Assembly (NCBI GenBank): GCA_964510585.1 | Contig: CAZECW010000124.1 | Span: 1-6,403, forward strand | Direction: 5' to 3' | DNA length: 6,403 bases | Source of the DNA: an uncultured archaeon | GTDB lineage: Archaea; Asgardarchaeota; Jordiarchaeia; Jordiarchaeales; Jordiarchaeaceae | Shown here: piece after piece, positions 83 through 4,902 of the stretch | Numbering within the stretch: position 1 is the stretch's first letter | How the letters are laid out: every line of letters begins with the position of its first letter | The notes under the pieces: model-generated | Databases searched by the model: none | The model's input: the letters and a program-made list of their open reading frames with translations, nothing else | Told to the model about the DNA's origin: nothing | Position numbers and translations under genes: made by a program

Positions 83-126
83 AAAGACAAATAAATCTAC
101 ATCACCTGTGGACATAAGCGGACATA
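83..126 (+). repeat. IS607-type left-end direct repeats (putative TnpA HTH binding motifs)
   Basis: GTGGACATA (108-116) and GCGGACATA (118-126) are 10 nt apart, with weaker copies ATCTACATC (95-103) and AAAGACAAA (83-91), directly upstream of the tnpA ATG. Short direct repeats of about 9 bp are the known architecture of IS607-family ends. Confidence 0.6.
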
Positions 127-131
127 TTATT

Positions 132-713
132 ATGGATAGACTGTACACTTTAAAAGAAGCAAAGATGCTACTCGGTGTCTGCACAAAGACTATTCAGCGG
201 TGGGACAGGGAAGGAAAAGTAAGAGTGGTGAGAACCTCTGGAGGTAGAAGACGTATTCCTGAAAGCGAAATACTGCGGATACAGGGAGAAGAAAGAAGAA
301 AGGGGAGGGTTATTGGATACGCTCGGGTCTCGTCTCCGTCACAGAGAGACGATTTGGAACGTCAAGTAGCGTTAGTCAAAAATAGAGGGGTGGAAGAAGT
401 GCTAACCGATGTGGGGTCGGGGCTGAATGAGAAGAGACGAAATTTCAGGAAAATATTAAAAATGGTGGCGGAGAGGAAAATTTCCCATATTGTAATATCT
501 TATCCTGATAGGCTTACCCGGTTCGGATTCCAAACGCTAAAAAACCTTTTCTCCGCCTTTGGAACCGAAATAACCGTAATAAAAGAAGACCAGTACAAAT
601 CACCGCAAGAAGAAATGGTAAAAGACCTAATAACCATAATTTCACACTTCTCCGGCAAACTCTACGGCACCCGCTCCCACAAAAATAAACAAAACAAAAA
701 AATGCAAACATAA
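132..713 (+). CDS. tnpA: IS607-family transposase TnpA (N-terminal MerR-like HTH + serine recombinase domain), 193 aa from ATG132; the ORF track starts at GTG108
   Basis: N-terminal LYTLKEAKMLLGVCTKTIQRWDREGK..RTSGGRRR HTH; catalytic GYARVSS; DVGSGLNEKRRNF, YPDRLTRFGF and EEMVKDLITIISHFSGKLYGTRSHK are all IS607 TnpA hallmarks. Confidence 0.95.
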   Translation: MDRLYTLKEAKMLLGVCTKTIQRWDREGKVRVVRTSGGRRRIPESEILRIQGEERRKGRVIGYARVSSPSQRDDLERQVALVKNRGVEEVLTDVGSGLNEKRRNFRKILKMVAERKISHIVISYPDRLTRFGFQTLKNLFSAFGTEITVIKEDQYKSPQEEMVKDLITIISHFSGKLYGTRSHKNKQNKKMQT

Positions 714-2755: not shown

Positions 2756-3071
2756 CCCTTGAAAGAGGGACTCAGAGGTAGCATTCTTGTAATTCCTCAA
2801 GTTCATGTTTCTTATGCCCTTTTTTAAGGGAAAGATAATAATGGTGGGGGGGTCTTTAAAGGGCGATGGCACTAAGTTAAGGTAAGAGGGAGATGTGGTT
2901 TCGTTCGATTCCGCTTCTAAAAGGCGTTTATGGAGCTCCTTTAGTTTAGAACCCTGAAATAAGGGGTGGAATCAGGCGGATCAACATCACTCCACGAGTA
3001 CAAGAAAAGAATTTGGGCTTAACTTAATGCCATTGTTTTTAAAGGGGATCTCTTTCAGAGCTTTTAAAGGG
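2756..3071. promoter_or_regulatory. Array of 14-bp palindromic CCCT-N6-AGGG boxes (operator- or iteron-like)
   Basis: Perfect boxes at 2756-2769, 2817-2830 and 2952-2965; a near-perfect CGCT-TCTAAA-AGGC at 2912-2925; TTTAA-AGGG half sites ending at 2863, 3046 and 3071 (TTTTAAAGGGGA exact direct repeat at 3037 and 3062). Confidence 0.5.
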
Positions 3072-3125
3072 GAGCGTGACTCTGAAATACCGGTACACTA
3101 TGGGAGTGTGGCAGGAAACGTGTGG

Positions 3126-3133
3126 TTTATAAG
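3126..3133 (+). promoter_or_regulatory. TATA box upstream of the candidate small RNA
   Basis: TTTATAAG lies 23 nt before the start of the GC-rich stem at 3156, with no ORF downstream. Confidence 0.5.
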
Positions 3134-3155
3134 TGATTAAGTGTCAATATATTTT

Positions 3156-3235
3156 GGTGGCGACCGGCGATTCCTTTCTCGAAAAAGGGATACAATGAAA
3201 CCACGACATTTCACCTCATTGGCCGGTCGCCCACC
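3156..3235 (+). ncRNA. Candidate ~80-nt structured RNA (three-way junction), unknown family
   Basis: 13-bp closing stem (3156-3168 / 3222-3235; 11 G-C pairs, one bulged C) encloses hairpins 3170-3191 and 3193-3221. TATA box upstream; T-rich TCTTATTTT directly after. Confidence 0.5.
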
Positions 3236-3379
3236 TCTTATTTTAACACGCGACTTCTGACTCCCACCAAACATTCTCCCCTGATGCTCTTACACATGTA
3301 ATGCTCAGATCCCCTATTTCCCCTCCGAAAAAGAGCCGCTCCATTCTGTTTTACCTATAAGAATTCTGATTCGGGGAGC

Positions 3380-3473
3380 TTTTATACATATTTTTAAAAA
3401 TTTCTAGTAGCGACCTTTGCAAAAAGGCGTTGGCTCACCAGAAGAGTGAGTCGAGAGAAAGACTTTGAGGTGA
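3380..3473 (+). promoter_or_regulatory. tnpB upstream region: TATA-like boxes, two hairpins and an RBS
   Basis: TTTTATAC (3380-3387) and TTTAAA (3393-3398); hairpins CCTTT-GCAA-AAAGG (3414-3427) and GGCTCAC-N7-GTGAGTC (3432-3452); GAGGTGA (3467-3473) 6 nt before GTG3480. Confidence 0.55.
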
Positions 3474-3479
3474 AATGTT

Positions 3480-4771
3480 GTGGACGCGATTGTAATCAGA
3501 ACTTTGAGATTTAACATTGAAAGTAATGCATGTTTGGATAAAGCTTTAGAGGTTTTCAAGGACATGGTAAACGAGATGTTGAAGTACGGGCTTGAAAACG
3601 AGGTTTACTCCGCCACAGAATTAGAGAAACATTTCTGGAACCCCTTTAAAGACAAATACCGCCTGGCAACTCACTACACCACCAGCGCCTCACGATACGC
3701 CGCAAGCCTACTCCAATCCCACCTCAGCAACCTGAAAGCCTGGAATGCAAACAGAAAGCCAACCAAGGAACCTAGCCCCCCAAAGCAGAAAAAACTCTGC
3801 ATGAGACTCCAAACGATACTAGCACGCCCCAAACTAGTTAACGGAAAACTAGAACTACACATAACCATAACCACAAAACCCAAAAAAGAACACGTAAAAC
3901 TGGCACTTCAGCCATACTCCTACGCCGAGCCTCTAGTTAAGGCCTGGGCTGCAGAAGAACTTAAAGTAGGCGAAATCACCATAAAGCCATCCGAGGTCTA
4001 CATACCCTTCAAGCAGAAAGTAACCTGTAACGAAAACCCCATAGGCGCAATGTTCTTCGACACCAACCTTTCAAGTTTGGACTTCGTCGTCGCAACAAAG
4101 AACGGAGTTTTCAAAGCCTTCAGCTTAGACATCTCACTGATCCAAAAAATCAGGCAGAGATACGCAGAAAAGAGAAAGCGAATCCAGAACAAGGTTAAAA
4201 ACCCCAAAGACAGAAAAAGACTCTGGGAGAAGTACGAGAAACGCGAGAAGCGGCGGGTGAACCACCTGCTGCACCTCGTAAGCAGTTTAGTCGCCGGGAT
4301 TTCTGAGAGGTACGGTGGGCTCTGCGCTGTTTTCGGAGACCTAACCGGGATCCGGAACAGCATAAACGAGCTTCCGCGCACAAAGGAACTCAGACATCAG
4401 CTAAACCTCTGGCCCTTTGAAAGGCTTCAACAGCTCTGCGAGTTCAAGTTGCTCCAGAAACCTCTTCTGGAGGGTGTTGGATTGGCTGCTTGACTCTGTA
4501 CATTAGCGAGGAGTACACTTCCTCTACCTGCCCCTTGTGCCGAAGGATAACTGAAACGCCCCGAGGACGGATATTCAGGTGTCCGTACTGTGGTTACAGC
4601 GGTGATCGACATATTGTTGCAGCGATAAACATGGCCCTTAAGCCTGGTCCCGAGTGGCTTAACTGGGTTAGCCGGGTGGTCACTCCCTACCCCAAGGTAA
4701 CCAGAATCAGGGTTGACCCAAAAATCAGCCCTGAGGAGACCTTGAACCGGGTTTTGGGAACCAGTCCTTAA
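3480..4771 (+). pseudogene. tnpB: TnpB (RNA-guided RuvC nuclease family, about 422 aa when repaired), split by a frameshift at about 4458-4483 into ORFs 3480-4493 and 4490-4771
   Basis: N-terminal IRTLRF strand; RuvC-I FFDTN (D194, nt 4059); basic helical region (EKRKRIQ..EKRRVNHLLH); RuvC-II region VFGDLTGIR; W-P-F..L..LCEFK; ISEEYTSSTCPLC..FRCPYCG Zn ribbon; DRHIVAAIN RuvC-III region. Confidence 0.9.
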
Positions 4772-4902
4772 GAGTCGTTATAGGTGTGGCGAGTTTGGGT
4801 ATCCGCCGAATGCCAATGAGCCCCCTAAAAGGGGTGAGGAAGGGAATGATTGTGGACTTATGTCTACTTAACCCAATACCCTTATCCTATTCATTTTCTG
4901 GG
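4772..4902 (+). ncRNA. Putative TnpB omega/reRNA scaffold overlapping the element right end
   Basis: Non-coding stretch after the tnpB stop with stems GGCG/CGCC (4788-4807), CCCC-CTAAAA-GGGG (4821-4834) and AGGGAATGA/TCATTTTCT (4841-4849 / 4891-4899, two G-U pairs), ending at TGGG. The position is as expected for TnpB guide scaffolds; boundaries are inferred. Confidence 0.5.

Follow-up and report, generated by a model that had tools for sequence, protein, structure and literature searches.

A predicted transposon-borne small RNA with a loop complementary to the tnpB translation start in an Asgard archaeon

Introduction

TnpB is the ancestor of Cas12 and, via IS607 elements, of eukaryotic Fanzor. 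The non-coding RNA associated with it, the omega-RNA (or reRNA), derives from the 3' end of tnpB together with the right transposon end, and carries the guide. Little is known, to our knowledge, about how the dosage of TnpB is controlled in the host beyond the processing of its own mRNA, and we know of no regulatory RNA that has been characterised in Asgard archaea. The antisense RNA-OUT of IS10 is an RNA through which a transposon restrains itself. Similarly, IS200 is restrained by the RNA art200 plus a stem-loop in the 5'UTR that sequesters the Shine-Dalgarno sequence (SD) (PMC4513863). In archaea, sRNA41 and sRNA162 of Methanosarcina mazei are base-pairing small RNAs that mask ribosome-binding sites (reviewed in PMC5867862).

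Here, we analyse a 6,403-nt stretch of DNA (the window) from a hot-spring Asgard archaeon of the Jordarchaeia/Freyarchaeia, whose genome assembly of 3.78 Mb is estimated to be 96% complete. The window carries an IS607-type element, and our analysis suggests that a small-RNA gene inside this element presents, in a hairpin loop, a mirror of the translation start of the neighbouring tnpB.

Results

The IS607-type element and its tnpB

The element begins with tnpA (108-713, plus strand), a gene for an IS607-type serine recombinase in which Pfam recognises a resolvase domain plus a MerR-like HTH. A left-end motif at 108-126 recurs at 4852-4867 as the right-end motif, and the sequence of the pair fits the two ends of one element. 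Its order is tnpA, about 2.7 kb of other material (cargo) and tnpB, with the RNA gene lying inside.

Several other repeats are found in and around this element. A MITE-like repeat of about 170 bp (2866-3033, with 16-nt terminal inverted repeats at 2866-2881 and 3018-3033) lies about 75 nt upstream of the promoter block of the RNA; one full-length copy with 71% identity is present on contig C11, and end fragments are present on C32 and C136. The cargo holds nested inverted repeats, 1315-1338 with 1678-1701 (24 nt, 88%) and 1369-1410 with 1667-1708 (42 nt, 71%), which flank some 340-390 bp and may constitute another miniature element. A 12-nt word related to them occurs upstream of a TnpB pseudogene in a related genome (G004:C127). 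In another relative, G003, we found at least six related IS607-type tnpA copies or fragments (contigs C53, C177, C35, C98, C49 and C92; loci L077, L082, L084 and L086-L088), several of them at contig ends, and neither the small RNA nor this tnpB was detectable at any of them.

The tnpB gene (3480-4771, plus strand) matches Pfam OrfB_IS605 weakly, contains a Cas12f1-like TNB domain, and has a frame that is broken once. Homologues of this TnpB are found at 60-65% identity, and the N-termini of two of them (P0002 and P0003, from Freyarchaeota/Jordarchaeaceae MAGs) begin at the same residue, which confirms the GTG at 3480-3482 as the start. The break lies at about 4470. Removal of the 23 nt at 4459-4481 restores one frame of 422 aa, colinear with homologue P0004, and we therefore consider tnpB probably intact once this intron-like insert is removed, and the target gene probably alive. 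The insert is placed between two 3-nt bulges on opposite strands with a 5-bp helix separating them, a bulge-helix-bulge-like fold, and homologue P0003 carries there a longer insert, which stays in frame and is read through. A sequence search of the PDB with a TnpB homologue as query matched the C-terminal zinc-ribbon/RuvC-III part only. The sole relative of this TnpB within the genus is a 5'-truncated pseudogene, and viral contigs yielded no relative. We note that the tnpB leader itself is predicted to fold into a hairpin (3433-3473), in which the stretch at about 3433-3439 pairs with the SD, with a z-score of only -1.6; it would be a possible second masking layer, acting in cis.

A three-way junction with an open loop

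Upstream of tnpB, the plus strand of 3156-3235 folds into a compact three-way junction. An outer stem of 13 bp, 11 of them G-C and with one bulged C (3156-3168 with 3222-3235), encloses hairpin 2 (3170-3177 with 3184-3191, spanning 3170-3191) and hairpin 3 (3193-3198 with 3216-3221), the latter with six base pairs, four of them A-U, and a 17-nt loop. The junction linkers are 1, 1 and 0 nt long. A preliminary description of this DNA had reported precisely this arrangement of a G-C-rich stem and two hairpins with almost no linker, and all of its coordinates hold, both in the sequence and in RNAfold, whose MFE structure is exactly this junction. The predicted energy of -36.2 kcal/mol compares with -18.9 ± 3.3 kcal/mol for 200 shuffles (z-score of -5.3), none of which folded as well.

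The junction forms an autonomous domain within a fold of 375 nt and is predicted to persist at 60 and 75 °C (-10.5 kcal/mol at 75 °C). Hairpin 3 leaves its loop 95% unpaired across the ensemble, and the loop is still open at 75 °C. An alternative TGAAA/TTTCA pairing, put forward earlier as a possible switch, is consequently minor in the ensemble, and the relatives do not keep it; we see no support for the switch. The minus strand of 3156-3235 folds equally well, because palindromic DNA must fold on both strands.

Predicted promoter and termini, and identity of the RNA

The junction is preceded by a conserved promoter block (3107-3155, plus strand), which shares about 80% identity with four further loci, spread over three genomes of the same genus. 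Within it, a TATA-like octamer (3126-3133) precedes the outer stem, with about 27 nt separating it from the stem's first base, and a transcript is predicted from the sequence to start at about G3156. The outer stem is followed by a T-run (3241-3244) of only four T, a candidate archaeal terminator. Both signals noted in the preliminary description, a TATA box at the correct distance and a U-rich end, are thus present in the sequence, while the minus strand is without a T-run and without a suitably placed TATA box. As the T-run comprises four T only, read-through into tnpB is likely.

Alignments of the loci from the genus reveal that the promoter block is better conserved than the RNA body. In all four full copies, TTTT followed by AA stands at the equivalent place, and homology stops there. 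The conserved unit therefore extends from the promoter, at about -45, to the T-run; it is found at five loci of four genomes and in two different contexts, which fits a self-contained gene. The conserved TATA block and the T-run bound the unit, and the open reading frames in it are not conserved, making it a candidate transcript. The best reading of the site is that of an undescribed small RNA that stands free and has a promoter of its own: judged from the sequence, a small-RNA gene of the IS607-type transposon most probably occupies 3156 to about 3244, with a product of about 85-90 nt.

As suspected from the start, the site has no tRNA identity, nor that of a tmRNA (ARAGORN), and no known family covers it: cmscan against Rfam 15 gave no match at 3100-3250 with E <= 1. 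We rejected the omega-RNA as an identity, given that the RNA lies 245 nt upstream of tnpB and the right-end motif lies at 4852-4867, and we likewise rejected a cis-antisense transposon RNA of the RNA-OUT or art200 type, with the gene (3156-3244) and its target (3466-3483) on the same strand. The proposed role of a cargo antitoxin or copy-control RNA finds no footing, as we see no connection between the RNA and the genes of the cargo.

A small family within one genus

BLAST against 60 related genomes recovered the RNA element in the same genus only. Three full copies (G001:C46, G003:C77 and G004:C160), near-identical to one another and about 75% identical to the window, lie between a divergent nrdD-like gene and convergent ChsH2-OB/thiolase genes, with tnpB absent nearby. 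What these copies share with the window is only the unit from about 45 nt upstream of the start to the T-run. Across the four full copies, the stem of hairpin 3 is invariant and its loop retains the anti-SD core; the position of the outer stem is kept, and two changes in it are fully compensatory when the window is compared with G003. The covariation analysis of the four full copies counted two pairs altered on both sides, which does not exceed what shuffles give (135/500), and with so few copies, three of them near-identical, covariation is not statistically meaningful.

The nrdD-linked copies fold weakly (-9.5 to -16 kcal/mol; z-scores of +0.8 to -0.9), no better than shuffles, and by our own count from the alignments the divergence among them is about as high in the RNA bodies as in the flanks. 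Their loops read as a mirror of an SD, a 6-nt spacer and an ATG. A search of the relatives' genomes gave no near-perfect target for these loops, and allowing up to three mismatches gave generic SD-ATG regions at the control rate. Given the weak folds, the flank-like divergence and the missing near-perfect target, the nrdD-linked copies may be drifting or relics.

A fifth locus (G001:C173; L022, 1187-1548) has a degraded 5' part of tnpA fused directly to the RNA promoter. The tnpA part is 81% identical to window positions 107-436 and begins exactly at the left-end motif, the promoter is 81% identical to window positions 3113-3159, and 4 nt of the RNA follow before the contig stops. On this sequence evidence, the locus derives by deletion from the same IS607-type element. 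Linkage of the RNA gene to this tnpA is therefore seen in two genomes whose left flanks differ, and the gene can be assigned to the mobile element. The family did not grow in wider searches: a pattern scan of genome contigs returned the already known loci only, two metagenome scans returned nothing but one A-T-rich chance match, a viral-contig scan and a plasmid search returned no family member, and the covariance model R1 found no new member in all 11 genomes of the class. The RNA family is tiny and confined to one genus.

The loop mirrors the translation start of tnpB

A repeat search of the window reveals an 18-nt inverted repeat (I9) between 3201-3218 and 3466-3483. The first copy, an anti-Shine-Dalgarno/anti-start segment on the plus strand, occupies the loop of hairpin 3, with its last 3 nt in the stem. 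The second, also on the plus strand, is the predicted target: the translation-initiation region of tnpB, with the SD at 3467-3473, a 6-nt spacer and the GTG at 3480-3482. As RNA, 18/18 positions pair (17 Watson-Crick and one G-U), and the pairing covers exactly the SD, spacer and start codon. In a genome-wide scan of seeded duplexes with the loop, covering both strands of the 3.78-Mb assembly and with the RNA's own antisense strand set aside, this duplex (-31.4 kcal/mol) is the best non-self site, the next reaching -26.0 kcal/mol. At 75 °C, the duplex is predicted to be still favourable (-13.3 kcal/mol).

The target lies about 265 nt from the loop on the same strand, tnpB beginning 245 nt downstream of the outer stem. 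The chance that the genome-best site would fall this near and on the same strand is about 1 in 10,000 or less (a few hundred bases in 7.6 Mb). When the 600 nt upstream were shuffled, the longest contiguous run had 16 pairs, although G-U was allowed without limit. A point against a regulatory role is that none of 13 distant TnpB loci in related genomes has an upstream anti-start run above its own shuffles. The RNA is predicted to offer what small RNAs that mask ribosome-binding sites use, an accessible segment complementary to an SD and start codon. Of the earlier proposal of an accessory RNA for the downstream TnpB, the link to TnpB stands, now in the form of these 18 nt by which the loop complements the tnpB ribosome-binding site and start codon, whereas a role as guide or accessory RNA falls away.

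Discussion

Proposed mechanism

We infer that the RNA is transcribed with the predicted ends, that it pairs with the tnpB mRNA in vivo, and that it represses tnpB. In this model, a transposon-borne base-pairing RNA masks the tnpB translation start, a reading that we favour tentatively, rating it slightly short of an even chance. Transcription would begin at about G3156 from the RNA's own TATA promoter and stop, for the most part, at the T-run. Together, hairpin 2 and the outer stem, rich in G-C, would make up a heat-stable scaffold on which hairpin 3, weak and A-U-rich, displays its 17-nt loop. Pairing between loop and mRNA would begin in the anti-SD half and, with hairpin 3 opening, proceed to the start codon, and the duplex would block 30S binding and limit TnpB synthesis. 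We note a topological limit of this model: a closed 17-nt loop and a long mRNA cannot form the full 18-bp helix (1.6 turns) unless hairpin 3 melts, and melting may still be insufficient. Consequently, only part of the 18 nt may pair at once, or the junction may have to open for the full helix.

Alternative explanations

The main rival is action in cis. Here, the conserved promoter would be that of tnpB, the junction would be the 5' domain of a leader of about 325 nt, the weak T-run would attenuate transcription, and in read-through transcripts the loop would fold onto the ribosome-binding site in a long-range pseudoknot. Such an arrangement would suit a T-run of only four T, the placement of RNA and tnpB on the same strand 245 nt apart, the autonomy of the junction as a 5' domain in the 375-nt fold, and our not finding a clearly conserved second promoter upstream of tnpB. 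However, A-T-rich TATA-like words at 3380-3401 could be tnpB's own promoter, and an 18-bp loop helix in cis would be under the same topological limit. Moreover, at the three nrdD-linked loci homology stops at the T-run with no plus-strand gene after it, so that the unit behaves as its own gene, and we regard the cis leader as unlikely. More improbable still is a relic without function, either an inverted 18-nt duplication of the tnpB start or a decaying RNA gene, in a stable, palindrome-rich stretch. The family is indeed tiny and limited to one genus, and its nrdD-linked copies look neutral, with weak folds and bodies as divergent as their flanks. Decay, however, would not keep what the window copy keeps: the perfect 13-bp G-C stem, the intact promoter and T-run, and an 18/18 match that joins the only large open loop to precisely the SD and start.

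The remaining explanations place the signal in DNA or protein. The 13-bp inverted repeat or the 18-bp sites might serve as recombinase or repressor-looping sites, or form a cruciform; inverted repeats I5 and I9 are both present, and the element encodes HTH proteins (Pfam). Yet the relatives keep the hairpin topology and not the 13-bp palindrome, the known end motif of the element (108-126 and 4852-4867) is a different one, and a DNA-level function would not account for the placement of one copy in a single-stranded loop and of its partner on the SD plus start. We consider it very unlikely. A small protein is a poorer candidate again. A minus-strand ORF of 25 codons (within 3156-3221) has a perfect SD with 6-nt spacing in both the window and G001:C46, but its start codon is lost in G003 and an equivalent ATG-initiated frame is not recovered in G004, so that a gene is improbable here; of the base changes separating G003 from G004, about 7/10 alter the peptide. 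The alternative, a 21-aa plus-strand ORF, is frameshifted between the window and its relatives, and we rejected both. Least credible of all is the alternative offered in the preliminary description, a MITE of 80 bp whose terminal inverted repeats are imperfect and for which TATTTT would be the target duplication. The outer arms are inverted repeats and TATTTT does occur on both sides, but the target-site duplication does not hold up, both occurrences being accounted for by a T-rich initiator region and a T-run, each of them conserved. BLAST and the covariance model R1 find a single copy in the 3.78-Mb assembly (estimated 96% complete), on which the MITE reading fails; relatives have one or two, at a syntenic site, and homology continues about 45 nt upstream of the supposed end at the outer stem, into the promoter. 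A real MITE-like repeat, with several genomic copies, adjoins at 2866-3033 and illustrates the form that a MITE takes in this genome.

Significance and relation to known systems

A small RNA that is encoded by the transposon on the same strand and masks the start of tnpB would, if real, add a new point of control over TnpB; in our literature searches, no upstream small RNA directed at a tnpB start came to light. It would likewise add to the very few concrete regulator-target pairs that have been predicted in Asgard archaea, and the pair, being short, heat-stable and defined to the nucleotide, lends itself to direct testing in vitro. If the site is only a relic, it is a curiosity. A broader proposition appears possible but doubtful: that Asgard IS607-type transposons carry a separate anti-start small RNA restraining TnpB, as part of a wider Asgard habit in which a hairpin RNA beside a gene mirrors, in its loop, that gene's translation start. 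Taken as a whole, this would amount to a gene-specific layer of post-transcriptional control, so far undescribed both in this lineage and for TnpB.

Among described RNAs, sRNA41 and sRNA162 of M. mazei resemble the present candidate in being intergenic and structured, in exposing a sequence complementary to a ribosome-binding site and in the repression of initiation, here predicted. There is no sequence or Rfam relation between them and our RNA, which is transposon-borne, belongs to an Asgard thermophile, has one near-perfect 18-nt target in the neighbouring gene, and is a computational prediction. With the omega-RNA of TnpB it shares the character of a non-coding RNA associated with tnpB in IS605/IS607 elements; in contrast to the omega-RNA, it lies upstream, has its own promoter, and contains a specific segment that matches the tnpB start. 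The likeness to art200 and RNA-OUT is that of a mobile element whose RNA pairs, by prediction in our case, with the translation start region of the element's own gene. The local anti-SD hairpin of tnpB, acting in cis, parallels the double control of IS200, and by this analogy tnpB may be under double control by the RNA and its own leader hairpin. However, art200 and RNA-OUT are antisense RNAs of the opposite strand that overlie their targets, whereas the RNA described here would act from the same strand, 245 nt upstream, through pairing of a hairpin loop, and the gene it would regulate is tnpB rather than the transposase.
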